Part shown: positions 6,424 to 64,000 of the stretch, piece by piece
Layout of the letters: every line of letters starts with the position of its first letter
Numbering within the stretch: position 1 is the first letter of the stretch
Source: Shigella phage Sf15
Strand: one strand, 5' to 3'
Sequence record: MF158041
DNA: 64,000 bases
Translations under genes and position numbers: made by a program
Notes under the pieces: generated by a model
What the model saw: only the letters and a program-made list of their open reading frames with translations
Databases searched by the model: none
What the model was told of the DNA's origin: nothing

Positions 6424-6616
6424 TCACACCTCTTCGTTGTAGTTCTGCCTTAAGACCGTTTTCAATCTTATCAAGCTCATGGATTTCTTCTGCAATCTCT
6501 TTCCTTCTTGAAGCGACCCTTTCAAGTCGCTCCATCATAACTTCTTTGGAAAGAGATGAGAGTTCCACTGTACGGTGGTCAATTACTTTAAAGTTATTCT
6601 CTCTCATCTTCAACAC
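6416..6616 (-). CDS. hypothetical small protein
   Basis: 66 aa charged ORF. Confidence 0.35.
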   Translation of the reverse strand: MLKMRENNFKVIDHRTVELSSLSKEVMMERLERVASRRKEIAEEIHELDKIENGLKAELQRRGVNG

Positions 6617-6619
6617 CTT

Positions 6620-7360
6620 TTATAGATTGATAATGGTTTTAAGTTTACTCTCTAACTCTTCCATAGTTCCGTTATTCTGGATAATATCACGGGAGAAGTT
6701 AGTGGAAATACCACGTTCAGAGCTATGGGAAGCCACCTGAATAGCATCTTTTCTTGTAATCTCAATTATCTGGCTATCGTAGCTTTGAAGGAACTCAGCT
6801 TCAATATCAAACCTTAAATCACATATCAGTGCAATACCTATGTGACTTTTCTTAATGCAATCACCATAGAATTTTTCAATACGTTCTGCCAAATCTGTAA
6901 TCCAGAAACGCTCTCCAAGAATTTTACGGATAACCTCACTACCCCAGACTTGCTGTATTTGTCTTGAGGAAATCATATATTCATTTTTCAAACCAAGCTT
7001 TGTAAGCAATGTAGGTTTACCAACTTTCTTTAACTCTTTGATAAGCCTGTCTGTGATTTCCCCACAAAGTTTTGCATCTTCATGGATGCCCTTACTTTTC
7101 ATGTTTAGCTGGAAAGCCCATGTCACACGGGAGTTAAGATTGTCAAAATCTAAGCTAAACTTTTTAGGTGTTTCTTTCGTATCACCATACAGGTCTTGCC
7201 AGTTCAAGTCAAAGATAAATCCAGCAGTTGCTTTTAAGTTATCGGCAAACGCAAACACTTTAACAGTGTATCCAGCCTCATTCAATAGATTTTTTACAAT
7301 GCTGCAAGATGTATCCTTTCCAGAACGAGCTTTTCCAGTAAATGCAATAATACTTTTCAT
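6620..7360 (-). CDS. deoxynucleoside monophosphate kinase
   Basis: MKSIIAFTGKARSGKDT closely resembles T4 gp1 N terminus and P-loop; start moved to Met at 7360 with GGAG RBS. Confidence 0.75.
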   Translation of the reverse strand: MKSIIAFTGKARSGKDTSCSIVKNLLNEAGYTVKVFAFADNLKATAGFIFDLNWQDLYGDTKETPKKFSLDFDNLNSRVTWAFQLNMKSKGIHEDAKLCGEITDRLIKELKKVGKPTLLTKLGLKNEYMISSRQIQQVWGSEVIRKILGERFWITDLAERIEKFYGDCIKKSHIGIALICDLRFDIEAEFLQSYDSQIIEITRKDAIQVASHSSERGISTNFSRDIIQNNGTMEELESKLKTIINL

Positions 7361-8895: not shown

Positions 8896-11595
8896 ATGGA
8901 CAATGTAGATTTCGAAAAATTACATTTGGTTGGTGATACAGAAACTGATGGGTTGCTCCTTGAGTTTACAAAAGCACACGTAATGGCTTTCGCAGACTAT
9001 AAAGATGACAGTGATGAACCTGCTGTGTGGGTTTTCACTGATGAGCCTATTCTTGGTCACAAGTATACAAAATACATCAAAGGTGGTCTGCGTGAAGGTG
9101 TTGAGTTTGCACTGAAAGCTAAACGTCTTTGTATCCACAATGGTCTTGGTTATGACTGGTGGGTGTTTAATCACATTGCACCTGACCTGTGGAACTTTGA
9201 GAATCCTAAGTGTAAGCCTTGGAGTGACTTCTTTCAGGATTCACTTATCCAATCTCGCGTACAGTGGATGGATAGACCTACACCAAAAGGTTACAAAGGT
9301 GCTCATGGTTTGGCTGCATGGGGTGCTCGTGTAGGTGTCCGTAAACCAGAGATTGAAGAGTGGGGTGTCTGGAATGCAGAGATTCTTACTCGTGTTGTAG
9401 AAGATATTAAGATTAACGCCAAAACTAAACGTGCTCTTGATAATGAGTACCTCAAGCTTAAGAAGTGTGGTGTTGACACTTATGAAACCTACATGCGAGC
9501 TAAAGAAACATCCTTCTGGATGAGTCAGCAAGCTATCAACGGTTGGAAAGCTGATGTAGAACTTATGCAGTTCCACGTTAAAGAACTTGACAAGTTAACT
9601 AACGAGTTGGCTGCTGAGGTTGAACCACACCTTCCACCAACTATTAAGACAAAAGGTAAAGTCACAGGTGAAGAATTTGCCAAGTCTTGGAACGAGTATG
9701 TAGATACATTTGGTCACGTTGATGGTTTGAAAAGGATTACCAAGTACCCTAAGACAAAGTATCGTGAACAGATGCGTGAAGGTGAGTTGAAGCAGTACCC
9801 TATCAAGCCGTATGGTAAGCCAACTACAAAGATTTTTAATGTTGAGAAGCGCAACTGCTACACTCCAACTAACACGGTCACAAAAGAAGAGTACCCTGAA
9901 GGTTTTGTAGCAATGAAAGATGCTCGTGCAGTTTGTAATGAACTGAATGAGAAGATTGGCAAGAAGTGTAAAGATTGGAAGCCAGTTAAGACTGTGAAAA
10001 CTGTGAAGTACTACAACGTTCACGTTGTTAATCACTTTGAGTTAGAGTCTAGTCGCTACACTGGTTTGATTGATGCACCATTTACACCAATTGAGTTTGA
10101 AGTTTCACGAATGACTCAGGTAGCTGTGGTGAAGGATTACTTAAAATCCGTTGGTTGGATTCCTGATGATTGGAACTATAAAAAAGATTCTGATGGTCGT
10201 CCTATCAAGGTTTGCAGATTCAAAGACAACAAAAAGATGATTCGCAAACATCCTAAGTGGGATGAGATGGTTGAACGTTGTGGATTGAATTACATTGAGC
10301 ATGAAGGTGTCTATTACATTGAGCATAACTGGTCTGTTAAGAAGTACACAGATGTGCTTGAGCCTTGCTTGATTAGGACTTCACCAAAGCTTACAGAGTC
10401 TTCTTATGATACAATCGAAGGTGAGCTTGGACAGAAGATTGCGAAGTACTATACTTTGATGCACCGACGCAGGACTATTGAGAACTCAAAGGATGATGAG
10501 AAAGGTTGGCTGAACCAGATTCGTCCAGATGGTCGTTTGAGTGCAGGTGCAATGGTGTTTGGTACTTCTACTGGACGTATGACTCAGTATGGTATTGTAA
10601 ACGTACCTTCTGGTGCTGCCGTGTACGGTGAGCCAATGAGGGCAGTGTGGATTTGTGAAGAGGGAACCAACGTAGTATCTGTTGATATGAACTCTGCACA
10701 GCTTGTACTACTCTGTAACTTCATGGGTGATAAAGACTTCACCAAAGCGGTAACAGAGGGTAAAGAAGAGATTGAGTTTGTCCGTCAAGAGGATGGAAGA
10801 TACTACTGTAAACACTTTGACCAGTATCTGAATCCAGAGATTGACAAGTATCTGCGTTACGACTCTGAAAACGATTTGTACGTAGTTTACTCAGGGACTG
10901 ATGCTCACACTCTGAACAGTATCTACTTCAGCCTTAATGATGAGCAAGATATCTTGACTTGTCGTGCTACTCAGGATGAGAATCTTCTTCATGAGATTAG
11001 CAAGGGACGTAAGAAAGCTAAGAATGGTATCTATGCTTTGTTGTTCGGTGCAGGTGATGAGAAGTTTGCCAAGACAATTAAAGCAGCAACTACTCAGGAA
11101 GGTGCATTGACTAAGCAGACTTACTTTGTGCGTTTGCCGAAGATTAAGAAACTGTTAGACAACTTGGAAGCTGATTTCAAAGCAACTAAGAAAGCACTTG
11201 AAGAGGTGTTTGGTAAAACTGCTGCAATCTCTAAAGGTGGTTTTGTGAAGGTTGCTGGGGCTTGGCTGTGGTGTAAGTCTCCACACAAACTCTTGAACTA
11301 TTTGCTGATGGGTTCAGAAGCACAAGTTCAGAATGAAGCAATCAACCTTGCATGTCGTCGTATGATTGACGAAGGTTTGATGAAGTTGAATGGTCGTAAA
11401 CCAGCTATTGGTGCTCGCTTACTCTGTGCTTACCACGATGAAACAAGCTGGGAATGTCCAGAGAGCATGACAGCAGATGTGAAAGCAGTAACTGACTGGT
11501 ATTATGGTCAAGCATCTAAGAACCTTGGGCTAAGAAAAGAGACATTGGTCACAGGTGCAGGGAAAGTTGGTAAATCGTGGCTTGAAGTCCACTAA
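8896..11595 (+). CDS. family A DNA polymerase with 3'-5' exonuclease domain
   Basis: Exo I motif DTETDGL; motif B RKKAKNGIYALLFGAG; motif C YHDE; GGAG-type RBS. Confidence 0.9.
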   Translation: MDNVDFEKLHLVGDTETDGLLLEFTKAHVMAFADYKDDSDEPAVWVFTDEPILGHKYTKYIKGGLREGVEFALKAKRLCIHNGLGYDWWVFNHIAPDLWNFENPKCKPWSDFFQDSLIQSRVQWMDRPTPKGYKGAHGLAAWGARVGVRKPEIEEWGVWNAEILTRVVEDIKINAKTKRALDNEYLKLKKCGVDTYETYMRAKETSFWMSQQAINGWKADVELMQFHVKELDKLTNELAAEVEPHLPPTIKTKGKVTGEEFAKSWNEYVDTFGHVDGLKRITKYPKTKYREQMREGELKQYPIKPYGKPTTKIFNVEKRNCYTPTNTVTKEEYPEGFVAMKDARAVCNELNEKIGKKCKDWKPVKTVKTVKYYNVHVVNHFELESSRYTGLIDAPFTPIEFEVSRMTQVAVVKDYLKSVGWIPDDWNYKKDSDGRPIKVCRFKDNKKMIRKHPKWDEMVERCGLNYIEHEGVYYIEHNWSVKKYTDVLEPCLIRTSPKLTESSYDTIEGELGQKIAKYYTLMHRRRTIENSKDDEKGWLNQIRPDGRLSAGAMVFGTSTGRMTQYGIVNVPSGAAVYGEPMRAVWICEEGTNVVSVDMNSAQLVLLCNFMGDKDFTKAVTEGKEEIEFVRQEDGRYYCKHFDQYLNPEIDKYLRYDSENDLYVVYSGTDAHTLNSIYFSLNDEQDILTCRATQDENLLHEISKGRKKAKNGIYALLFGAGDEKFAKTIKAATTQEGALTKQTYFVRLPKIKKLLDNLEADFKATKKALEEVFGKTAAISKGGFVKVAGAWLWCKSPHKLLNYLLMGSEAQVQNEAINLACRRMIDEGLMKLNGRKPAIGARLLCAYHDETSWECPESMTADVKAVTDWYYGQASKNLGLRKETLVTGAGKVGKSWLEVH

Positions 11596-12063: not shown

Positions 12064-12251
12064 CATACGAAGAAGCTCTCGAAGCTATGAAACAGGGCAA
12101 GAAAGTTCGAAATGAAAATTTCACATCTGATGAGTTCTTTGAAATAAAAGACGGAAAGGTTGTATGTGAAATGGGTTACCCAATGGCTGCATGGTACAAG
12201 GGGGAACCTTGGCAGAAAACTGGATGGAGTATCTTTAATGAAACTTTATAG
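12045..12251 (+). CDS. hypothetical small protein
   Basis: 68 aa ORF. Confidence 0.4.
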   Translation: METPKMTYEEALEAMKQGKKVRNENFTSDEFFEIKDGKVVCEMGYPMAAWYKGEPWQKTGWSIFNETL

Positions 12252-12381
12252 CATTTGGGGAAGAGTTGGTGAAGGTTATGACTGGACTCTTCTTAAAACA
12301 AATGTTAAAAGTAACGAGATAGCTTACTACAAAATCTATTACCATAAAACTTTTAGAGAGGTAGAGTATCGTGAGCAATAA
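12238..12381 (+). CDS. hypothetical small protein (47 aa)
   Basis: ATG at 12238 preceded by GGAG; internal part of track ORF 12160-12381. Confidence 0.35.
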   Translation: MKLYSIWGRVGEGYDWTLLKTNVKSNEIAYYKIYYHKTFREVEYREQ

Positions 12382-12622
12382 AGAGCAAGAAGCTTTAGCA
12401 ATCTTCAAGAGCGAAGACAAATCAATAGCTTTTGTCTCAGAGGCTTGGTGCAGGGATTTGGGGTATGATTGGTATCTCTTCTTATGCGCTAAGAAAGATG
12501 TTAAACCAGTTGATGAAACCCGATTCAAAGAACTGTATAATATCTGCCAAGAGGGTTATGAAGAACATTACGAAGGTTCTTTGAATCCTGTAAATTCAAA
12601 AGCTTCAGATTTATTTTATTGA
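12371..12622 (+). CDS. hypothetical protein
   Basis: 83 aa ORF, GTG start with GAGG RBS. Confidence 0.45.
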   Translation: MSNKEQEALAIFKSEDKSIAFVSEAWCRDLGYDWYLFLCAKKDVKPVDETRFKELYNICQEGYEEHYEGSLNPVNSKASDLFY

Positions 12623-12632
12623 GAGGTTTGAA

Positions 12633-12878
12633 ATGTTAAAATTATTGATACCAGCTTTAGTAGTCCTACTGGTTGGATGTAACCCTTCTTATGAGAATAA
12701 GGATGCTTCTTACAGACTTCCTCCAGAAATGCAAGACTGCAAGATTTATAAACTTAATGGTGATGCCATTAGCAGGGATGTTATTGTAGTTCGCTGCCCA
12801 AATTCTCAGACGACAACTTCTTACAAGTATGGGAAGAATAGTCAGTCACACACCACAGTTTTTGATGGGGGATATTAA
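12633..12878 (+). CDS. putative lipoprotein
   Basis: signal peptide MLKLLIPALVVLLVGC with lipobox-like LVGC. Confidence 0.5.
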   Translation: MLKLLIPALVVLLVGCNPSYENKDASYRLPPEMQDCKIYKLNGDAISRDVIVVRCPNSQTTTSYKYGKNSQSHTTVFDGGY

Positions 12879-58371: not shown

Positions 58372-58377
58372 GACTAT

Positions 58378-58402
58378 ACAGCCCCTTAATTGGGGCTTTT
58401 TA
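58378..58402 (+). terminator. intrinsic terminator
   Basis: GCCCC-TTAATT-GGGGC hairpin followed by TTTTT. Confidence 0.65.
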
Positions 58403-59905
58403 TTGAGTAAATTTACGAAATTTATAATTTTTATAAAATTTGGGATTCACTCCGTTCATCTTGGGTCACCATGATATGTGATAAAATATCTATACCCTTC
58501 TAAACACCCTCTCTAAGCATCATCTCTATATAGTATTATATAGTATCTATATAGCCTCTTAGTCCCTAAATAGTGCTCTCTATATAGCCCTCTATAAAGC
58601 CTTCTAAGCCTCCCATTAATCAACCCTATACAATCCTTCCTAACCTCTTCCTAGCCCCTTAGAAGCCCCTATACTCATCTTAATCTCTAGGTAAACGATA
58701 GTACCCTATATAGCAGAATCACTAGGTATTACTAAGCCTCTATATAGACTGTTATATAGCACTAAACAGGTATTCCCTGTAAAGGCTTATCCTACAAGGT
58801 CTAACACGGTACTAACAAGGTCTCTTATAAGCCTGTTAATTCCTGTTTTATATAAGATAGTGTATAGATAGTTATTCAGAATTATAAAATTTTTATAAAA
58901 TAGACTAGGTAGGTTACTTTTTAGGTTCTTTGGAGATTCTTGAAAATATCTACTTAGGATGTATATCTGCTTGGTAGCCCTTAACAGCCCTGTAACATCC
59001 CCTTTGCAAAATCTTAAAATATCATTAACAATCTCTTAACAACTCTTCCAAGTCCTTAACATCTCTTCAGAGTTCTTAACAGTCTCTTAACAGAACTAAC
59101 AAGAGCTTAACAAGTCTGTAACATTACTAACAAGAGTCTAACAAGTTGCTTATAAGTTGCTAAATAGTTAAATCTTAAGAGTTATTTTGTTAAGATAATT
59201 AACAAGTTCTAAACCTTTTTAACAAGCTATTAACATGGTCACTATCTCTTGGTCTATAGTTCCCTTCCCTTCTTAGTGATTCTCTATAAAGCCCTCTTAA
59301 AAGCTCTCTGTAGCTCTGTATAGCCTCTTCTAAGGTTCTCCCTAGTAACTACACCCCAACTACCTGTATAGCTCTTTATAGGGCTTTCTAGGGGCTTATA
59401 TAGGGACTTCAAAGAGTCTAACAAGCTCTTAACATACCTCTAACAAGGATTTAACAAGGGGCTAACAAGTCTCTAATAAGCATAACTATGTAGCATTTGT
59501 TAAGATTTTGTTAAGAGAATGTAAAGGGGGCTAACTTTTACGTTACTTTTAAGGTTCTTTTACGTTACTTTGAAGACTCCATAACATACTTTAAAGCTAT
59601 TATCAAGCCCCTGTTTAAGCATTCACAAGATACTAACGAGATAATAAAGCTTATACCCTTATAAGATTCTTTTAAGGCTCTAGAAAGCTCTATAAAGGGC
59701 TTTTAAGAGTAGGTTAATATGATTGCTTAAGATGAGATGATAAGCCCGTATAGAGCGTTATAGAGCGTTTTAGGGATTGCCCTTCCCTTTCGGGTTATGG
59801 GCTTATATTTAAGTTGATTTGATAAGAGGATATAGAGTAAGCTATAGAGTTATTGTTCTAAATGTATGAGATAGGTTCTATCGAATCAATGGTAAGATTC
59901 TAGGA
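58403..59905. repeat. ORF-free region with clustered short repeats (CTATATAG palindromes; TAACAAG / CTTAACA iterons)
   Basis: no ORF over 60 aa on either strand; many direct and palindromic short repeats visible by eye. Confidence 0.6.
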
Positions 59906-59909
59906 AGAC

Positions 59910-59935
59910 GTAAAAAAGCCCCATCTAAGGGGCTG
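59910..59935 (-). terminator. intrinsic terminator for the minus-strand small-gene array
   Basis: minus-strand hairpin GCCCC-TTAGAT-GGGGC followed by TTTTTT. Confidence 0.55.
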
Positions 59936-59975
59936 TAAAGGTGTCTGGGGCTATTTGCCCCGTTGCGGCGACTTG

Positions 59976-60227
59976 TTAGTTATTGAAGCCGTCAACTTCA
60001 TAGTAAAGCGTGATAAGAGAATCACCCCAATAGTAAGAGGATTTGCCATCCTTTAAGACTTCTTGTTTTACTTCTTTCCAGAACCACTCAGATTGATTGT
60101 AGTCCTGAATAGTTGCTTTTAGACACATATCAACCATGCCAAAAACATCGCCAGTTCCAACCATATCAAATTTAACATCTAATACATGGAAGCCAAAATT
60201 GTTAACAGTTGCGTGGATAGTAGCCAT
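59976..60227 (-). CDS. hypothetical small protein
   Basis: 83 aa, preceded by conserved leader cassette. Confidence 0.45.
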   Translation of the reverse strand: MATIHATVNNFGFHVLDVKFDMVGTGDVFGMVDMCLKATIQDYNQSEWFWKEVKQEVLKDGKSSYYWGDSLITLYYEVDGFNN

Positions 60228-60296
60228 TTTCAGATTCTCCAGTTTAGGAATTTAGGTTAGTGGGGAAGTCTCCCTCCCCGTTGAAAGTAATATTAA
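60228..60296 (-). repeat. leader cassette copy (GC hairpin + CCTAAACTGGAGAATC RBS block)
   Basis: shares core GATTCTCCAGTTTAGGA and GGGG..CCCC hairpin with eight other copies. Confidence 0.6.
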
Positions 60297-60556
60297 TTCA
60301 TTGCTGCATAAGTTGCAAGTCTTTTTTCATTGTATTTTGTAAGAATCTCACAAGATAAAACGTCATACTTTGCAACGGCTTCAGATTTAGTTAAACCGAA
60401 ATGGCTTACAATTTCACCATTCATGAATCCGACTACTTCATAAGATTCTGCGATGATTTCACCGTTGAACCAATCACTTTCAATACGTTTGCAAAGTTGG
60501 ATATCTTCTTTGTCAGTACCGATTTGTAACAGGATAGTGATTTCTTGATTATTCAT
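60293..60556 (-). CDS. hypothetical small protein
   Basis: 87 aa, leader cassette upstream. Confidence 0.45.
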   Translation of the reverse strand: MNNQEITILLQIGTDKEDIQLCKRIESDWFNGEIIAESYEVVGFMNGEIVSHFGLTKSEAVAKYDVLSCEILTKYNEKRLATYAAMN

Positions 60557-60617
60557 TTTCTAGTCTCCAGTTTAGGATTGTTGGGGAAAGGTCATCCCCT
60601 CCCCGTTGATAAGTACT
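60557..60617 (-). repeat. leader cassette copy
   Basis: same conserved core. Confidence 0.6.
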
Positions 60618-61145
60618 TTATAGATTTGTGATGATTTCGTCAAGGGAATTTTCTAAGTTTTTTAAAGATTGTTCGTAAAGCCTAATTCCCCTACTTAATG
60701 CTTCCCCTAACGTAATTTTAAAATTAGTTGTTGGGTAGTCACTTGTAAAGATGTTTTCCACTTCATAGAGTGGGTATTGTTGGTTACCCGTTCCCATAGC
60801 ATACATGCCTGTATAGTGGATTGCAATAAAAAGATTATGGGACTTAATAGAGCGCTCATAAGCCATTTTAAAGCGGTTTAACTCGTTTTTAGTTGCCTTA
60901 ATAGCCATTTCGTGAATTTCTGCGACTATAGCCATATAATCATTCAGAATAAGAGAAATAGCCCCCATAAAGTTGTTGGCTGTTACCGCTTTTACATTTG
61001 GTCGGTGTACATAAAACTTCTTATCTTCCCCTTTTGTGATAACTGCAAAAACTTTGCTCTTTAAGGTAAATTCCCAAGTATCTTTACAAGGCTTGCTCAT
61101 CACTTCACGGCTACGGATTGCATTAACAGCATTAAACTTATTCAT
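60618..61145 (-). CDS. hypothetical protein
   Basis: 175 aa, leader cassette upstream. Confidence 0.45.
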   Translation of the reverse strand: MNKFNAVNAIRSREVMSKPCKDTWEFTLKSKVFAVITKGEDKKFYVHRPNVKAVTANNFMGAISLILNDYMAIVAEIHEMAIKATKNELNRFKMAYERSIKSHNLFIAIHYTGMYAMGTGNQQYPLYEVENIFTSDYPTTNFKITLGEALSRGIRLYEQSLKNLENSLDEIITNL

Positions 61146-61210
61146 TCTAGATTCTCCAGTTTAGGAATTTTGTTTTAGTGGGGAAGTCTCCCTCCCCGTT
61201 GATGAATACT
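61146..61210 (-). repeat. leader cassette copy
   Basis: same conserved core. Confidence 0.6.
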
Positions 61211-61351
61211 TTACTTGTTTTGATTCTGTATTGCAAGTAGTTTTTTATCAAAAAGTTTATCTGAGATTTCACCAATGGTGAGCATTGCTAATGGCAACAC
61301 AACAGAAACAATCATACCGCAAAGGATAGGGTTTTTAATGATATCTAACAT
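61211..61351 (-). CDS. small hydrophobic protein (46 aa), not in ORF track
   Basis: ATG at 61351 directly follows a leader cassette copy; translation MLDIIKNPILCGMIVSVVLPLAMLTIGEI... contains a TM-like segment. Confidence 0.4.
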   Translation of the reverse strand: MLDIIKNPILCGMIVSVVLPLAMLTIGEISDKLFDKKLLAIQNQNK

Positions 61352-61383
61352 TTAGTGATTCTCCAGTTTAGGAAGTTGCCTTT
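61352..61383 (-). repeat. leader cassette copy (short form)
   Basis: GATTCTCCAGTTTAGGAAG core. Confidence 0.5.
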
Positions 61384-61547
61384 TGAAGATACTATATAGA
61401 TATGATTAGACCTTTGCAAGTACTTTTTACGCTTATCTATAAAGAATCTATTAAGTTAATCCCTTTTAGATAAACCCCCTCGAACAAAGTTACACTTGTC
61501 AAGGGGCATTGTCAATAGTTTTTCAAAAGATTTTTATAAGTTGTTGA

Positions 61548-61889
61548 TTAGCTTATAAAGATTTTTTCTGGCTTAACATAGGTTAATGACTGTTTTTTAA
61601 GCAAATCAGACCAAATGAGCGCGGCAATGTGGCTATATCCCTTTTCTCTTAACTCCTGCATAGCTGATTTGCGAGTTTCGAAACGTGTAGCATAGTATTC
61701 AGTGTTAAGGGTAGTTTTATTCCCTTCATTGTCAACATGTACAATCTGCATCACTTGAAAGGGGCTTACATCTTCTCCCCTGTTCCATTGCTCAAAGTAC
61801 TTGAGACACTGCATAGGTTTCATTTTGTCGTTAACTTGGGTAGACCATGACGAATTTTCTTTATCGGTGATAATTGTTACATAGGCCAT
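61548..61889 (-). CDS. hypothetical protein
   Basis: 113 aa, long-form leader upstream. Confidence 0.45.
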   Translation of the reverse strand: MAYVTIITDKENSSWSTQVNDKMKPMQCLKYFEQWNRGEDVSPFQVMQIVHVDNEGNKTTLNTEYYATRFETRKSAMQELREKGYSHIAALIWSDLLKKQSLTYVKPEKIFIS

Positions 61890-61974
61890 TTTCAGATTCT
61901 CCAGTTTAGGATTGTTGGTAAAGCTCTTTATCTGGGGCTTAAGATACTAGCTTTTAAACCCCATGTAAAGCACT
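61890..61974 (-). repeat. leader cassette copy (long form with promoter-like TTTACA-17-TAAGAT)
   Basis: one of three near-identical long copies. Confidence 0.6.
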
Positions 61975-62172
61975 TTAATAAATTCTATCCATCAGATTAT
62001 TCACGGCCATAATTGCATTATCTTTGAAGTGTGGATGACTGCTATTCTGTGAGAATAGTATTTCTCCATTGTATACTATTTTTAGGTCTATCTTTGAACC
62101 TTCCATGTTAAGGTTACACTCTACACCTTTTAAACACCACAAGGTAGAAAGTTTTTGCATCAGTGATAACAT
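61975..62172 (-). CDS. hypothetical small protein
   Basis: 65 aa, long-form leader upstream. Confidence 0.4.
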   Translation of the reverse strand: MLSLMQKLSTLWCLKGVECNLNMEGSKIDLKIVYNGEILFSQNSSHPHFKDNAIMAVNNLMDRIY

Positions 62173-62263
62173 TTTAGATTCTCCAGTTTAGGATTGTTGG
62201 TAAAGCTCTTTATCTGGGGCTTATCTTATCTAACTATAAACCCCATGTAAAGTACTTTATTAG
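62173..62263 (-). repeat. leader cassette copy (long form)
   Basis: near-identical to copies at 61890 and 63416. Confidence 0.6.
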
Positions 62264-62485
62264 TTATTTGTAGTAATAATATGTAAACTCATTTATCAGG
62301 CTTCCATCCTCATCATTATACTGCTTATGACTAGCCAGATAACCGCCATTAGCTAGAATTTCATCAATCAACTTTTTAGCGTCATCGTTGGGAATCCTAA
62401 CAGGTTTACTAAACGGCTGTAAATAGGTACGACGAACATTTGAGAATTTAAAATCAATGGTTTTTACGTTAAGAACTTGCAACAT
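62264..62485 (-). CDS. hypothetical small protein
   Basis: track ORF 62264-62563 trimmed to Met at 62485, which directly follows the leader core. Confidence 0.45.
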   Translation of the reverse strand: MLQVLNVKTIDFKFSNVRRTYLQPFSKPVRIPNDDAKKLIDEILANGGYLASHKQYNDEDGSLINEFTYYYYK

Positions 62486-62540
62486 TTTTTGAATCTCCAG
62501 TTTAGGATTGTTGGGATGTTTCCCGTTGATGAATACTTTA
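62486..62540 (-). repeat. leader cassette copy
   Basis: GAATCTCCAGTTTAGGATTGTTGGG core. Confidence 0.55.
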
Positions 62541-62563
62541 CTTTCTTGCGTTTTCAGTGTCAA

Positions 62564-62794
62564 CTACTTTTCTATAAGAATCTCATATTCACCATTCACA
62601 CTATCAAAGTAAATACCTTCATCATCTTCTGATTTATAGTAGCACTGTATATCATCCGATGCTGGGTAGTCTTGCCTTGCTATCTGACAGGCAACAATAG
62701 CATTATTTTCGCTACCTGTAAACTCTTCTAAACCTTTAAAGTTGCATTGTGAACCATTGCAGATAGATAGAATAAGATAGATTGTTGTAAGCAT
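62564..62794 (-). CDS. small secreted or lipoprotein-like protein
   Basis: hydrophobic N terminus MLTTIYLILSICNGS; GAGG RBS. Confidence 0.4.
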   Translation of the reverse strand: MLTTIYLILSICNGSQCNFKGLEEFTGSENNAIVACQIARQDYPASDDIQCYYKSEDDEGIYFDSVNGEYEILIEK

Positions 62795-62857
62795 CTTTTA
62801 AGCCTCTTGTAAGCCCCTGTGCGGGGCTTTTCTAGTGAACTGGTGTGATTCTATGGT

Positions 62858-63415
62858 TTATGCTGTTAAGTCGTTTATAACCGTTTCTGTTACGTTGCAT
62901 TGCATGGTGTCAAAGATATCACAATATACATTGCTCATCCCATCACTACGTTGGACTATTTCTGCAATGTTGCGTAGTTCGTCTGGTACATATCCTAAAT
63001 TTCTATTGTTTAGGTTAGGGACAAAGAAAGGCGCATACATAGCATTAAATTCAGTTGTGTAAACCTTTTTAATCCATTCTTTATCGAAATATTCTGTAAA
63101 GCTTGCTACGTCGCTCATGTTCTCACAGCTCCAGTCATCTTGTAAATCATCTTCTGGAATATCCAGTTCCAAGATAACAAGCTTTTGTGACTTCATTTGA
63201 TAGGCTGCTGTAATGCTTGCGCTATCAAGCGCGTTTCTAATACCTTCATCTGTGATTTGTTCGTCATCCAGATTCTCTACATCATAGAACTTGTTAACAG
63301 GGTAGACGTAAAAACATCCATCCATATCAGAGCAATTCCAAGCTCCTGATGGTTTATCACCGCCATTGATAAGGTTTACAAAGTTTTCTTGTGTAGTACC
63401 ATGAAAGCATTTCAT
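62858..63415 (-). CDS. hypothetical acidic protein
   Basis: 185 aa, long-form leader upstream. Confidence 0.5.
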   Translation of the reverse strand: MKCFHGTTQENFVNLINGGDKPSGAWNCSDMDGCFYVYPVNKFYDVENLDDEQITDEGIRNALDSASITAAYQMKSQKLVILELDIPEDDLQDDWSCENMSDVASFTEYFDKEWIKKVYTTEFNAMYAPFFVPNLNNRNLGYVPDELRNIAEIVQRSDGMSNVYCDIFDTMQCNVTETVINDLTA

Positions 63416-63499
63416 TTTAGATTCTCCAGTTTAGGATTGTTGGTAAAGCTCTTTATCTGGGGCTTATCTTATCTAACTATAAACCCCATGTAAAGCACT
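63416..63499 (-). repeat. leader cassette copy (long form)
   Basis: near-identical to copies at 61890 and 62173. Confidence 0.6.
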
Positions 63500-63748
63500 T
63501 TATTTAGTTTTCTTTGTAAAGATTAGTTTAACGGCAACAGTTGGTAACTCTTCAATACTTGTGAACAAAGTCACTTTTTGAGTCTTGACATTATAGCCAT
63601 ACTTTGAACCATAAGCCGTAAAACGGTTTACAATGTAACTGTAAGTTTTTGCAGTGTTATCTGGCATATGATATAAAAACGGCTTGCCAAGGTTATCAAG
63701 TTGTGTTAAGAGTCGGCATGTATCAGGGATATTCAACATATTAAACAT
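63500..63748 (-). CDS. hypothetical small protein
   Basis: 82 aa, leader cassette upstream. Confidence 0.45.
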   Translation of the reverse strand: MFNMLNIPDTCRLLTQLDNLGKPFLYHMPDNTAKTYSYIVNRFTAYGSKYGYNVKTQKVTLFTSIEELPTVAVKLIFTKKTK

Positions 63749-63810
63749 TTTCAGATTCTCCAGTTTAGGATTGTTGGGGCTTCTAACTTGCCCCGTTGAT
63801 GAGTACTCTA
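63749..63810 (-). repeat. leader cassette copy
   Basis: GATTCTCCAGTTTAGGATTGTTGGGGC core with GGGGC..GCCCC hairpin. Confidence 0.6.
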
Positions 63811-63832
63811 CTACTATGCTTTTGCAATGTCA

Positions 63833-63980
63833 ATCAAATCTCTGAATAAATTGCATCGCAGATTTCACGGAAAACTTCAACCGGTAAGTTACGCTGTAAC
63901 CATGTTGCAAAGAAATCAGCAATTGCAAAGTTTGCATCAAAATCAACACATAGCCACACTTTAACAGCAAATCTAAACAT
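63833..63980 (-). CDS. possible small protein (48 aa)
   Basis: ATG near 63980, stop at 63833; no clear RBS. Confidence 0.25.
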
Positions 63981-64000
63981 TTTCAAGTCAAGTTCTTTAT

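Follow-up and report, generated by a model that had tools for sequence, protein, structure and literature searches.

Repeated promoter-like, hairpin and leader cassettes precede small genes of Shigella phage Sf15 and coincide with sites of gene turnover in related phages

All but one of the small minus-strand genes at the end of the window (64,000 nt of Shigella phage Sf15, record MF158041) are preceded by a repeated cassette, and the best explanation overall, which we consider probable, is that these cassettes are promoter–hairpin–leader modules doubling as recombination homology. The same explanation makes the region the 3' part of a ~7-kb array of single-gene modules, each a cassette plus a small ORFan, in a Felix O1-like phage (Ounavirinae). 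Shigella phage Sf13 (Ounavirinae, Mooglevirus) shares 99.5% identity with the window, and its array extends beyond the window end and comprises 16 cassette copies over ~7 kb; the nine copies counted in the first-pass annotation are correct for the window, whose end cuts the array. Eight other phages have 10-18 copies each, always on a single strand and in a single block. The array has a single orientation throughout and is situated downstream of the rIIA/rIIB arm.

The leader core, the 13-mer CCTAAACTGGAGA, matches the minus strand exactly at nine sites between 60236 and 63769 (Table 1) and is absent from the rest of the 64 kb even with up to one mismatch; 0.11 matches are expected by chance, and none of 100 shuffles reached nine. 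Directly downstream of every copy a minus-strand ORF begins with ATG, at a distance of 7–10 nt in nine of the ten genes of the region. This bears out the earlier observation of a shared block before nearly every minus-strand gene, the exception being 62564-62794. The full 16-mer ...GGAGAATC, which had been attributed to all nine copies, is complete in seven, with GGAGACTAG in the copy at 60564 and GGAGATTC in that at 62494. The shared sequence extends well beyond the Shine-Dalgarno region, being 60-95 nt long and taking in both a −35/17-nt/−10 unit and a hairpin. The three long forms that had been noted constitute a 107-nt family (61888-61994, 62170-62276 and 63413-63519) with 77-93% identity. 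Matches to the class B cassette defined below were found at 1,486 places in 287 phage records; the genera named in these records are hosts of Ounavirinae, except in a few oddly labelled records, and blastn found no cassette outside Ounavirinae-type records.

Table 1. Features of the cassette array, in the direction of the minus strand. Promoter-like sites are given as −35; −10. The lower coordinate of each leader core is the position of its match to the 13-mer.
Feature	Position	Strand	Promoter-like site	Hairpin	Leader core	Predicted start	Remarks
Cassette 1	63749-63833	−	TTGACA 63833-63828; TAGAGT 63810-63805	GGGGC-9nt-GCCCC 63794-63776	63769-63757	~63797/63796	Class A, before S35; promoter scan 10/12
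Gene S35	63500-63748	−					82 aa, no known function; variable: missing in Moogle and pEC-M719, replaced in Sf18
Cassette 2	63416-63502	−	TTTACA 63494-63489; TAAGAT 63471-63466	Bipartite, 21 bp, 63502-63444 (inner stem 63488-63458); −25.6 kcal/mol, z −4.65; covariation	63435-63423	~63458	Class B long form, before S36; 5' edge is upstream stop TAA 63502-63500
Gene S36	62858-63415	−					185 aa, no known function; in every enteric relative examined
Cassette-free intergenic region	62795-62857	−		AAGCCCC-GCACA-GGGGCTT 62829-62811, opposite polarity			The only one, before S37; conserved in all relatives
Gene S37	62564-62794	−					76 aa, no known function; without own cassette
Cassette 3	62486-62563	−	TTGACA 62563-62558; TAAAGT 62540-62535	Short, GGGA-AACA-UCCC 62524-62513	62506-62494	~62527/62526	Class A, before S38
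Gene S38	62264-62485	−					73 aa, no known function; variable
Cassette 4	62173-62266	−	TTTACA 62251-62246; TAAGAT 62228-62223	Bipartite, 62259-62201; −25.1 kcal/mol, z −4.65	62192-62180	~62215	Class B long form, before S39; upstream stop 62266-62264
Gene S39	61975-62172	−					65 aa, no known function; only Sf13, Sf18 and CHB7 among compared loci
Cassette 5	61890-61977	−	TTTACA 61969-61964; TATCTT 61946-61941	Bipartite, 61977-61919; −25.4 kcal/mol, z −3.74	61910-61898	~61933	Class B long form, before S40; upstream stop 61977-61975
Gene S40	61548-61889	−					113 aa, no known function; all relatives; Felix O1 ORF21 homologue
Cassette 6	61352-61419	−	Different type: TTGCAA 61419-61414, 17 nt, TATAGT 61396-61391	None; fold z −0.72, not significant	61372-61360		Leader core only, before S41; 3' end of 196-nt intergenic region (61352-61547) conserved in relatives
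Gene S41	61211-61351	−					46 aa, predicted membrane protein; variable
Cassette 7	61146-61236	−	TTGCAA 61236-61231; TAAAGT 61213-61208	GGGGAGGGAGACTTCCCC 61197-61180	61165-61153	~61200/61199	Class A, before S42
Gene S42	60618-61145	−					175 aa, no known function; Felix O1 ORF22 homologue
Cassette 8	60557-60643	−	TTGACG 60643-60638; TAAAGT 60620-60615	9 bp, 60604-60583	60576-60564	~60607/60606	Class A, before S43
Gene S43	60293-60556	−					87 aa, no known function; missing in SUSP2 and CHB7
Cassette 9	60228-60318	−	TTGCAA 60318-60313; TAATAT 60295-60290	As in cassette 7 (28-nt repeat D8), 60279-60262	60248-60236	~60282/60281	Class A, before S44
Gene S44	59976-60227	−					83 aa, no known function; last gene of array; Felix O1 ORF23 homologue
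Intrinsic terminator	59911-59934	−		AGCCCC-TTAGAT-GGGGCT, then TTTTTT			Ends array; marked as terminator in Mordin, Michonne and Moogle annotations

None of the ten genes encodes a Pfam domain, and their PHROGs are of unknown function. The region before S37 lacks both the leader core and a promoter-like site and has, after its hairpin, its own Shine-Dalgarno sequence AAGAGG. The Sf13 annotation of S38 as a 99-aa protein, whose start codon would be the TTG within the −35 hexamer (62563), is probably wrong.

Two classes of cassette are distinguished by the layout of promoter and hairpin. Class A has the order TTGACA/TTGCAA, 17 nt, TAAAGT, ~10 nt, a GGGG…CCCC hairpin and the leader, and in class B a 21-bp bipartite hairpin encloses TTTACA, 17 nt and TAnnnT. 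The pattern of −35, 17-nt spacer and TAnnnT is conserved over 99 distinct copies from 11 phages. Among the 44 distinct class A copies the −35 counts are T41 T40 G40 .. A32, a 17-nt spacer occurs in 37, and the −10 counts are T44 A36 A34 A43 G37 T44. Among the 55 distinct class B copies TTTACA is retained in 53-55 and is followed exactly 17 nt later by 11 different hexamers, whose counts (T48 A51 n n A41 T51) give the TAnnnT signature of a −10. The A+T content of the 20 nt upstream of the −35 is 70-90%, versus 61% in the window. A generic promoter scan was only modestly enriched (24 sites vs. 14.8 ± 3.4), with two class A promoters scoring 8/12, below its calling level. The first-pass annotation had reported TTTACA-17-TAAGAT in the long forms, which applies to two of them, the third having TATCTT, and had limited the promoter to these forms, although the short cassettes 1, 3, 7, 8 and 9 also have a −35/17/−10 unit. 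In cassettes 7, 8 and 9 the −35 lies within the 3' end of the upstream ORF, whose TAA stop doubles as bases 1-3 of the −10; the −35/spacer portion of cassette 7 encodes the S41 C-terminus ...LAIQNQNK. As part of the favored explanation, we regard these sites as predicted host sigma70-type promoters, which would be active during infection with a timing that published data on Felix O1 may indicate: by RT-PCR, transcripts of the cassette-preceded homologues ORFs 16, 20, 21 and 22 peak at 5 min, and in the same crude assay the cassette-preceded ORFs 17, 19 and 23 peaked at 25 min (PMC3185647).

A hairpin of a G-run and a C-run, previously thought to lie upstream in each copy, is present in eight of the nine; there is none at 61360, and the copy at 62494 has just GGGA/UCCC. 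RNA folding gave about −25 kcal/mol and z −3.7 to −4.65 for the class B hairpins; the fold of cassette 6 was not significant. Over 47 distinct class B copies, 93.8% of cells are paired, versus 33-61% with the partner slid. Five pairs have changed on both sides (24 cells, a level reached in none of 500 shuffles), a count that includes changes inherited by copies related by descent, so that independent events are fewer than cells. Examples are a compensatory change of an outer-stem G-C to U-A, the replacement of GGGG/CCCC by GGTG/CACC in an Erwinia phage, and a compensated base-pair deletion from GGGGTTTAT/ATAAGCCCC to GGGGTTAT/ATAGCCCC. Two class B positions are G·U in 42-43 of the 47 copies, which favors the sense strand as RNA. 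The 44 class A copies have 24 distinct hairpin sequences, every one of which folds (mean z −4.0; z < −2 in 41).

These patterns bear on whether the inverted repeats are instead DNA operators, in which they and the near-palindromic TAAAGnGCTTTA boxes flanking class B would bind a dimeric phage protein that shuts off early promoters. The class B inverted repeat does cover the promoter spacer and −10, the two boxes overlap the −35 and about +5 to +18, typical repressor positions, and the inverted repeats of extended SAS (ESAS) have been interpreted likewise. Yet the stems vary freely while pairing is kept, as in the 24 different class A hairpins, loop length ranges from 4 to 11 nt, and the two near-fixed G·U positions are strand-specific. 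Moreover, position 5 of the 5' box covaries with position 8 of the 3' box; these are pairing partners and not equivalent half-site positions, which fits a folded single strand rather than a sequence-specific duplex site. We therefore consider operators improbable.

The terminator scan found no U tract 3' of any cassette hairpin, and canonical intrinsic termination is accordingly not predicted for them; the terminator that ends the array is the sole hairpin with a T-run on the minus strand of the region. It is possible, albeit rather unlikely, that the hairpins, chiefly the class B helix, serve to cut or stabilize a polycistronic early transcript from far upstream, with RNase III (or another enzyme) yielding single-gene mRNAs in the manner of the T7 early region, and that the promoter hexamers are fortuitous or minor. 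At ~21 bp, internal loops included, the class B helix has a length sufficient for RNase III, and compensatory changes preserve it. Lacking a U tract, it does not qualify as a canonical terminator, and with the predicted start falling inside it, it can arise in read-through RNA alone; the co-orientation of the entire array downstream of the rIIA/rIIB arm also fits. However, an RNA-only constraint does not suffice to explain TAnnnT exactly 17 nt past an invariant TTTACA in 11 hexamers, because these positions are mostly in the hairpin loop, and class A hairpins, at 4-8 bp, are below RNase III length. RNA processing is compatible with the modular explanation as a role of the hairpins and weak as a denial of promoters.

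In the favored model of promoter–hairpin–leader modules, the order would be a host sigma70-type promoter, a GC-clamped stem-loop and a standardized A/C-rich 5' leader ending in CCTAAACU-GGAG, 7-10 nt upstream of the ATG. The class A hairpin, whose first paired base is 11 nt past the −10 in 28 of 44 copies, would begin at about +3 to +5 of the predicted transcript, where it may cap and stabilize the 5' end of its own gene's mRNA and also set the 3' boundary of read-through transcripts from upstream. The class B promoter lies wholly within the interrupted 21-bp hairpin, which could form only in upstream read-through RNA and may there attenuate, be a site of processing or protect the 3' end, while the cassette's own transcript would begin immediately after the inner stem and carry a leader free of structure.

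A further possibility, which we regard as unlikely but as the strongest of the alternatives, is that the leader CCAACAATCCTAAACTGGAGAATCTA is the functional heart of a translational regulon resembling start-associated sequences (SAS), promoter and hairpin being secondary. It would be an mRNA site at which a phage or host protein or RNA, such as a RegA-like repressor or a GGAG-cutting nuclease of the RegB type, jointly switches translation or cleavage of the array genes. Invariance of the 8 nt preceding GGAG (CCTAAACT) is at least 94-95% over 81 distinct copies. We take this octamer to be unable to pair with the anti-Shine-Dalgarno sequence of the E. coli 16S 3' end, which would count in favor of such a regulon. 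The same argument was used for SAS in cluster K mycobacteriophages (PMC3203893), and the analogy was already drawn by the authors of the Mordin genome, who in 2015 published the leader as a 26-bp repeat "reminiscent of start-associated sequences" and gave no function (PMC4611695), as was also the case for the Felix O1 long repeats listed in 2010. The leader varies by lineage as a whole block (CCTTAAACTAGGAGA in part of Felix O1, CCCTTATAAAGGAATC in phiEa21-4), as expected from co-evolution with a trans factor, but recombinational homogenization explains this equally well. Against the idea, no factor emerged as a candidate, neither the window nor the 26 kb of Sf13 examined contains a complement of the leader, and the −35/17/−10 geometry and hairpin covariation are left unaccounted for. 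The two explanations are not mutually exclusive.

In the relatives compared for gene content, rearrangements fall at cassettes. All 13 gene-loss or gene-gain junctions examined are chimeric, with a single cassette that matches the left parent on its 5' side and the right parent on its 3' side. Crossovers lie in the leader core in A×B events and anywhere along 90 bp in B×B events, and the crossover point for loss of S39 differs between SUSP1 and Michonne. Genes downstream of a deletion take the class of the upstream cassette, as predicted, with S36, S40 and S34 switching from B to A. Michonne has a tandem gene duplication of two 258-nt copies (258/258 identical) with an 'empty' cassette between them, in Sf18 S35 is swapped for a gene whose nearest homologues are just 60-70% identical, and Erwinia phage phiEa21-4 combines this cassette architecture with another leader and a permuted gene order. 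Some array rearrangements occurred without cassette homology, namely loss of S27 at a TAAA microhomology and a 48-bp deletion in Sf18. Selection against gene-disrupting deletions alone would enrich intergenic breakpoints, yet not in-register chimeras.

The junctions also leave little room for spread of class B by transposition as a MITE-like element, with the stem as terminal inverted repeats and the 14-nt direct repeats TAAAGTGCTTTACA / TAAAGAGCTTTACC as target duplications. Direct repeats do flank the hairpin and there are many copies per genome, but these copies are confined to one block, with a single orientation and a single register with respect to the stop and start codons, a transposase was not found, the 'direct repeats' covary as pairing partners and do not stay identical, and the junctions are homologous-recombination chimeras, so that this idea is close to refuted. 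Under the modular explanation, the near-identical cassettes, being head-to-tail in the same orientation, would serve as portable homology. Recombination between two of them would delete, duplicate, insert or replace entire genes and each time leave a single intact chimeric cassette, which would keep a promoter and ribosome-binding site in every product. In the enteric genera, cassette identity within genomes (0.85-0.89) is no higher than between genomes (0.83-0.88), and thus does not demonstrate ongoing homogenization there.

The suggestion that these are PeSL-like repeats associated with gene shuffling is supported by the architecture and by comparative genomics, including the chimeric junctions, the duplication, the slot replacement and the permuted gene order; the promoter, hairpin and mini-circle roles are putative. 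PeSL elements are defined by a sigma70-like promoter preceded by an AT-rich tract, a stem-loop of the form GGGG...CCCC whose position relative to the promoter varies, a 5' edge at the upstream stop codon and a 3' edge at the Shine-Dalgarno sequence and ATG, and they cluster before ORFans in a plastic region, where they bound indels (PMC2839356). The Sf15 cassettes match this definition on each feature. Unlike the phages with described PeSL cassettes, Sf15 is not T4-like, and termination has been shown for T4-type PeSL stem-loops, whereas the Sf15 cassette hairpins have no U tract. Because blastn matches to the cassette are confined to Ounavirinae-type records, the likeness is one of architecture and evolutionary behavior and not of sequence homology. 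Relatives of this Felix O1-type phage appear to have gained, lost, duplicated and swapped small genes by recombining between cassettes, as described for the PeSL of T4-like phages.

Shigella phage Sf13 (MF158040; Ounavirinae, Mooglevirus) shares 99.5% identity with the last 4.1 kb of the window, and 242 Felix O1-type phage records also match this stretch at lower identity. The Sf13 counterpart of this region makes up the distal portion of a cluster of 19 small genes on the minus strand (gp39-gp57); the cluster lies downstream of the rIIA/rIIB arm and ends in a terminator adjoining a 1.6-kb non-coding gap. The first-pass annotation had proposed that one leader is repeated in front of these small genes, and this is borne out by nine copies of the 13-mer leader core CCTAAACTGGAGA, all on the minus strand (60236-63769; chance expectation 0.11); a search of the whole 64 kb with up to one mismatch gave no further copy. 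Nine of the ten genes in 59976-63748 have the leader just upstream of their ATG, as had been described, the sole exception being gene 62564-62794, which is preceded by a hairpin of opposite polarity and a Shine-Dalgarno (SD) sequence of its own instead of the leader core. The window end cuts the array; that of Sf13 counts 16 copies across ~7 kb. No copy of the cassette, i.e. the repeated block of promoter-like hexamers, hairpin and leader, was found outside the array in the other 60 kb of the window or in the Sf13 locus, with all but about 6 kb of that phage covered, and no antisense copy of the leader, a possible regulatory RNA, was found either. The cassettes are confined to one block in the genomes compared, in front of genes without known function: the array genes have no Pfam domain, and their PHROGs matches are to unknown-function families alone.

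Two classes of cassette can be told apart, short forms (class A) and long forms (class B). Class A begins with a promoter-like sequence (TTGACA, TTGCAA or TTGACG; 17 nt; TAAAGT, TAGAGT or TAATAT), followed by AyTyATCAAC, a GGGG...CCCC hairpin, (A)ACAAT, the leader core, 5-8 nt and the ATG. In three of the five copies the −35 lies in the last codons of the upstream ORF, whose TAA supplies the first three bases of the −10. The 5' part of class B consists of a stop codon within TAAAGTGC, TTTACA, a 17-nt spacer starting with TGGGGTTTAT, and TAAGAT or TATCTT, and its 3' part of AAGCCCC, AGATAAAGAGCTTTACC, AACAAT and the leader core. Conservation spans 60-95 nt in the alignments and is thus not limited to the SD region. 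Some details of the initial description need correction: the full 16-mer leader is present in seven of the nine copies and absent from the other two, the GC-rich hairpin is found upstream of eight and missing from one, and the three long forms do constitute a 107-nt repeat family (77-93% identity), with TTTACA-17-TAAGAT in two of them and TATCTT as the second hexamer of the third. Promoter-like sites had been noted in the long forms, where they stand, but had been overlooked in the short forms, which carry them too.

Cassette copies in the window and C-terminal tails shared by array proteins
Feature	Location	Strand	Basis
Class A cassettes (short form)	before genes 63748, 62485, 61145, 60556 and 60227	minus	sequence
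Class B cassettes (long form)	before genes 63415, 62172 and 61889	minus	sequence
...LA(I/M)QNQNK tails	window 61214-61245; Sf13 locus about 8923-8960		

The copy before gene 61351 has the leader core alone, without a hairpin, behind a different promoter-like site (TTGCAA-17-TATAGT). A 196-nt intergenic region within the array (61352-61547) is unlike the cassettes, with TTGCAA-17-TATAGT of its own, two TTGACA boxes, a CCCC...GGGGG inverted repeat and the motif AGATTCTTTATAGATAAGC, which resembles motifs in the 1.6-kb gap; it is kept in all relatives, regardless of which gene comes next. TAAAGT also precedes class B, where inspection of three copies by eye found no class A-type −35 at 17 nt upstream; it seems to be either a relic or the stop codon together with the A-rich tract 5' of the cassette.

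To characterize the promoter-like sites, cassettes were collected from 11 phages (Mordin, Sf13, Sf18, Michonne, Moogle, SUSP1, SUSP2, pEC-M719-6WT.1, CHB7, Felix O1 and Erwinia phage phiEa21-4), which yielded 44 class A and 55 class B sequences, all distinct. The class A −35 reads T41 T40 G40 (A/C) (C/A) A32 and the −10 T44 A36 A34 A43 G37 T44 (n = 44), with a spacer of 17 nt in 37 of the 44. In class B, TTTACA is kept in 53-55 of the 55 copies and is followed, exactly 17 nt 3' of it, by any of 11 hexamers (TAAGAT, TAGTAT, TATCTT, GATTAT and others) that retain T48 A51 n n A41 T51 (n = 55). We read this hexamer as a −10 because positions 1, 2 and 6 are kept while positions 3-5 vary, which is the expected signature; RNA pairing does not explain these bases, as they lie mostly in the hairpin loop. 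The 20 nt 5' of the −35 are 70-90% A+T, vs. 61% for the window, and the upstream stop codon lies 0-12 nt 5' of the promoter or inside it. A generic promoter scan called seven of the nine window sites, with a modest overall enrichment (24 sites vs. 14.8 ± 3.4). RT-PCR on Felix O1 put the transcript maximum of ORFs 16, 20, 21 and 22 at 5 min and that of ORFs 17, 19 and 23 at 25 min (PMC3185647). All seven are array-gene homologues with a cassette upstream, and their timing leans slightly towards early expression. Judging from the sequence, it is quite likely that the cassettes carry promoters. Each would then be an early promoter for the host RNA polymerase, making every ORFan an autonomous unit.

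The leader extends beyond the ribosome-binding site. Among 81 distinct copies from the enteric genera, CCTAAACT immediately 5' of GGAG is ~95% invariant, and GGAG lies 7-10 nt (mode 8) upstream of the start codon in all 81. Given what we take to be the 3' end of 16S rRNA, the eight bases of CCTAAACT cannot lengthen SD pairing. Leaders are uniform but different in other lineages, e.g. CCTTAAACTAGGAGA in part of Felix O1 and CCCTTA(A/T)AAAGGAATC in phiEa21-4. The leader would provide uniform, strong translation initiation and may also be the target of a trans-acting factor.

Folding gave a stem-loop in eight of the nine window copies (z −2.1 to −4.65), which in class B spans the spacer and the −10. 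The class B intergenic RNA is predicted to form, at −25 kcal/mol (z −3.7 to −4.65), a bipartite helix of 6 + 5 + 10 bp that begins at the upstream stop codon and ends at GCUUUA. In a MAFFT alignment of 47 distinct class B copies, 93.8% of the cells hold standard pairs, vs. 33-61% when partners are slid, and the true pairing lies above this value, since MAFFT sets a one-bp-shorter variant out of register at three inner-stem pairs, so that the “not paired” counts at columns 27/42 and 28/41 are partly artefacts. Both sides have changed at five pairs (24 cells), and the covariation score (0.085 vs. 0.034) was matched by none of 500 shuffles. Among the compensated changes, the outer stem shows G-C to U-A (34 vs. 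8 copies), every class B copy of the Erwinia phage has GGTG/CACC in place of GGGG/CCCC, and one variant has dropped a base pair on both sides of the stem. At two pairs, 42-43 of the 47 copies have G·U, with occasional U-A or C-G, which points to the sense strand as the one that folds, as RNA.

Class A hairpins are more diverse in sequence, with 24 different ones in the 44 copies, all of them GC-clamped stems of 4-8 bp (mean z −4.0). The first paired base lies 11 nt past the −10 in 28 of the 44, and with transcription starting 7-9 nt past the −10 the hairpin would be located 2-4 nt from the 5' end. In E. coli mRNA decay, a stem-loop 2-4 nt from the 5' end protects against 5'-end-dependent decay. 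The class A hairpin would cap the 5' end of its own mRNA, whereas the class B helix would act on read-through RNA alone, by attenuation, processing or 3' protection; these specific roles are possible, at about even chances or somewhat less. A role of the hairpins as Rho-independent terminators was considered and rejected, there being no minus-strand terminator inside the array: the terminator scan found no U tract 3' of the cassette hairpins, so that no canonical intrinsic terminator is predicted at them, and the sole minus-strand hairpin with a U tract in 59400-64000 is the array-end terminator (59934-59917). Membership in a known RNA family was likewise discarded, as an Rfam 15 scan of 59000-64000 gave a single chance-level match, to a miRNA model (E = 0.19).

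In order to see how gene content varies at the cassettes, the array genes of nine enteric phages were clustered into 22 families, nine present in every genome compared and thirteen variable. Gene order is collinear among these phages, but modules of one gene each are gained and lost. The gene that follows a missing one carries the class of the upstream cassette: families S36, S40 and S34 turn from class B to class A precisely in the phages without S35, S38/S39 and S33, respectively. That related phages would be rearranged at these elements, as the first-pass annotation had anticipated, is evident from the junctions, 13 of 13 of which are chimeric, as well as from a tandem duplication and a slot replacement. 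In three-way alignments, the 5' side of every surviving cassette (end of the upstream ORF, promoter and usually hairpin) has the exact sequence of the left parental cassette, and the 3' side, on into the downstream ORF, that of the right one. The change from one parent to the other occurs in shared sequence, i.e. the leader core for A×B events, anywhere in 90 bp for B×B events and the hairpin for the one A×A event. Family S39 was lost in both SUSP1 and Michonne, with different crossover points. The loss of S27 in Michonne involved TAAA microhomology and not cassette homology.

The duplication is found in Michonne, where two tandem gene copies are identical at 258 of 258 positions (CDS 12102-12359 and 12532-12789 of its locus, minus strand). 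Between them lies a complete but “empty” class B cassette: its ATG is followed at once by CTTTACATGGGG, which belongs to the next cassette. Such an empty cassette between 100%-identical gene copies marks a very recent unequal crossover at TAAA(A/G)TG microhomology. Sf18 has replaced the S35 gene by another one, with a leader that resembles the Erwinia-phage type; the nearest homologues of its product, in wV8-type and Hafnia phages, are 60-70% identical. The order of homologous genes differs in phiEa21-4 (S30, S33, S36, S31, S37, S42, S35), which has nine further array genes without detectable counterpart, and two that match weakly. Homogenisation of cassettes within genomes is unsupported in the enteric genera (identity 0.85-0.89 within vs. 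0.83-0.88 between), and is suggested in phiEa21-4 (0.75 vs. 0.65-0.70).

We consider it very likely that the cassettes serve as recombination sites. General homologous recombination between them would produce deletions, duplications and insertions, and because any recombinant keeps one intact promoter and ribosome-binding site, clean products alone are seen. A more elaborate possibility is integron-like gene capture in a virulent phage, in which a phage enzyme dedicated to the task would recognise the folded hairpin, with its sense-strand G·U pairs and flanking TAAAGnGCTTTA boxes, together with the invariant leader as one structured single strand, and would actively excise and insert cassette-plus-gene circles. 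Selection on the hairpin as a structure, crossovers that always fall within cassettes and the Sf18 slot, where a gene was imported with a foreign-type leader, would all be in keeping with such an enzyme, but ordinary homologous recombination accounts equally well for the same facts, and we regard the enzyme-driven route as very improbable. MITE-like mobility of class B was rejected: its copies keep to one block and one orientation, and the junctions are chimeras of homologous recombination.

Sf18 also carries a 48-bp deletion (~10700-10740 of its locus), another event independent of cassette homology, that took the hairpin, leader, ATG and first codons of its S33 homologue. This gene may be dead or translated differently; a longer overlapping ORF is annotated in the Sf18 record. 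Sf13 gp45 (6525-6824 of its locus; window 62486-62563) has an annotated length of 300 nt, with its start set at the first three bases, TTG, of the −35 hexamer TTGACA, and the ORF reads through the 62486-62563 cassette because there is no in-frame stop in it. The true start is likely the SD-preceded ATG at 62485, giving 73 aa, as annotated in Mordin and Michonne. The predicted 46-aa membrane protein encoded at 61211-61351 and the unrelated Sf13 gp51 share the C-terminal sequence ...LA(I/M)QNQNK, since both reading frames close with the −35 and spacer of the same class A cassette; the spread of the cassette has therefore also transplanted a coding tail.

Beyond the last array gene, a cassette relic, AACGGGGCAAATAGCCCCAGACACCTTTACA, runs directly into the terminator hairpin (59935-59975). 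The adjoining ~1.6 kb (58372-59975) have no credible ORF, are flanked by two convergent terminators that are mutual inverted copies (58374-58401 and 59913-59940), and are dense with short repeats at an 11-nt phase, namely CTAACAAGnnn (59096-59174 and 59407-59487), the inverted TTGTTAAGA (59497-59525), CTCTATAAAGCCC and CTTTTAAGGTTCT. The sign of GC skew switches here, and Mooglevirus, Suspvirus and Felix O1 all retain the gap, which has the look of an iteron or protein-binding array, perhaps an origin, packaging or terminal region.

Parts of the cassettes have been reported before. In Felix O1, Whichard et al. (2010) recorded the class B repeats (57 bp) and the class A promoter repeats (39 bp) simply as direct repeats and left them out of their promoter count. 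Guan et al. (2015) described a 26-bp leader repeat, CCAACAATCCTAAACTGGAGAATCTA, before eight Mordin genes as “reminiscent” of the start-associated sequences (SASs) of cluster K mycobacteriophages and gave it no function (PMC4611695); 14-nt repeat_regions are marked in the Mordin GenBank record. In the open-access literature we found no paper tying these repeats to promoters, hairpins, promoter-early stem-loops (PeSLs) or gene turnover, none linking PeSLs with Felix O1-type phages, and no transcriptome of any Ounavirinae phage. The repeat itself is therefore known, and what appears to be new is its PeSL-type interpretation across the Ounavirinae, with evidence from junctions. Felix O1-like phages of Salmonella, E. 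coli, Shigella and Erwinia are used in typing, biocontrol and therapy, and for these the cassettes give a predicted map of early promoters and 5' UTRs, explain why this block differs among otherwise near-identical isolates, and expose annotation errors such as a −35 hexamer whose TTG was taken for a start codon. They are also natural, self-expressing “landing pads” at which a payload could be inserted or an ORFan removed without polar effects.

The SASs and their extended forms (ESASs) were described in cluster K mycobacteriophages in 2011 (PMC3203893). Like the cassettes, they involve a short asymmetric repeat that includes the SD core, precedes, in one orientation and by a few nt, the ATG of 8-19 non-structural genes, has conserved flanking bases unable to pair with 16S rRNA, and is accompanied by an upstream inverted repeat in about half of the copies. 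However, the 13-bp SAS consensus GGGATAGGAGCCC has only GGAG in common with the leader core, and host and phage group differ. The imperfect 17-bp inverted repeats of ESASs deviate in ways that do not fit RNA pairing and have been put forward as sites of DNA binding (PMC3203893), unlike those of the cassettes, which covary as a helix with pairing kept by compensatory changes. SASs have not been reported with sigma70 promoters or as boundaries of indels. The likeness is a good analogy, of position alone.

RNase III sites lie between the early genes of T7, and stem-loops at the very 5' end, e.g. in the ompA 5' UTR, stabilise E. coli mRNAs. Class B resembles the former as intergenic irregular helices of ~20 bp in a co-oriented early gene block, and class A resembles the latter as a stem-loop a few nt from the predicted 5' end. 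T7 RNase III sites are not known to contain promoters or to serve as substrates of recombination. In halovirus HF2, repeats between genes carry promoters and similarly supply them to many genes (PMC8707807), but this is an archaeal virus with other promoter types and no hairpin or leader unit. The “linker” sequences of Botstein's modular phage evolution, as discussed in PMC2839356, are likewise conserved joints that let modules swap without losing regulation, but denote a concept and not a defined element.

The closest counterpart is found in PeSLs, known from the T4-like phages RB49/phi1, PST/T4 and nt-1/KVP40 (Arbiol et al. 2010, PMC2839356; Comeau et al. 2014, PMC4122927), and we compared the cassettes with their published definition (PMC2839356, PMC4122927). 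The PeSL-like character first suspected holds at every testable sequence-level and comparative point: both are composite repeats of about 60-100 bp, with an upstream stop codon in an AT-rich tract, a sigma70-like −35/−10, a stem-loop (usually GGGG...CCCC) whose placement varies by subclass (in the spacer and −10, or just past the −10), and an SD sequence and ATG at the 3' edge; both cluster upstream of ORFans in a plastic region, and in both the indels and replacements of relatives end at the elements and leave chimeric survivors. Differences are also clear. The host of the cassettes is an 87-kb Ounavirinae myovirus and not a T4-like phage, with ~16 copies in a single 7-kb block, vs. ~50 PeSLs over several regions. 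The 3' leader is much more uniform than in PeSLs, with 21 nt in a row almost unchanged, the whole class B promoter is enclosed by its stem-loop, a bipartite helix of 21 bp, and the cassette hairpins are without a U tract. Promoter activity, terminator activity and mini-circles have been shown experimentally for PeSLs (PMC2839356; PMC4122927), whereas the cassettes are known from sequence.

A blastn search with a class B cassette (E ≤ 1e-3) returned 287 records and 1,486 places, of Ounavirinae type alone and with none named T4-like. The class B cassette in a record of Staphylococcus phage SA1 (GU169904, 147 kb), and a homologue of the Sf18 replacement gene in one of Listeria phage LPML1 (OK283618, 87 kb), probably reflect chimeric or mislabelled records and not spread beyond the Ounavirinae. 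Given the lack of sequence relatedness and the Ounavirinae host, we class the cassettes as PeSL-like, i.e. analogous and not homologous. The composite explanation, promoter-hairpin-leader cassettes that double as recombination linkers, is in our view probable. According to the authors of the PeSL study there was no evidence for the mechanism in other viruses (PMC2839356), and regulatory cassettes with this second role as recombination linkers had been described in T4-like phages alone. The same design in a second, unrelated myovirus subfamily, with chimeric junctions that are unusually clean, would suggest a general, convergent route for accessory-gene turnover in virulent phages, and is a useful extension of the PeSL concept.
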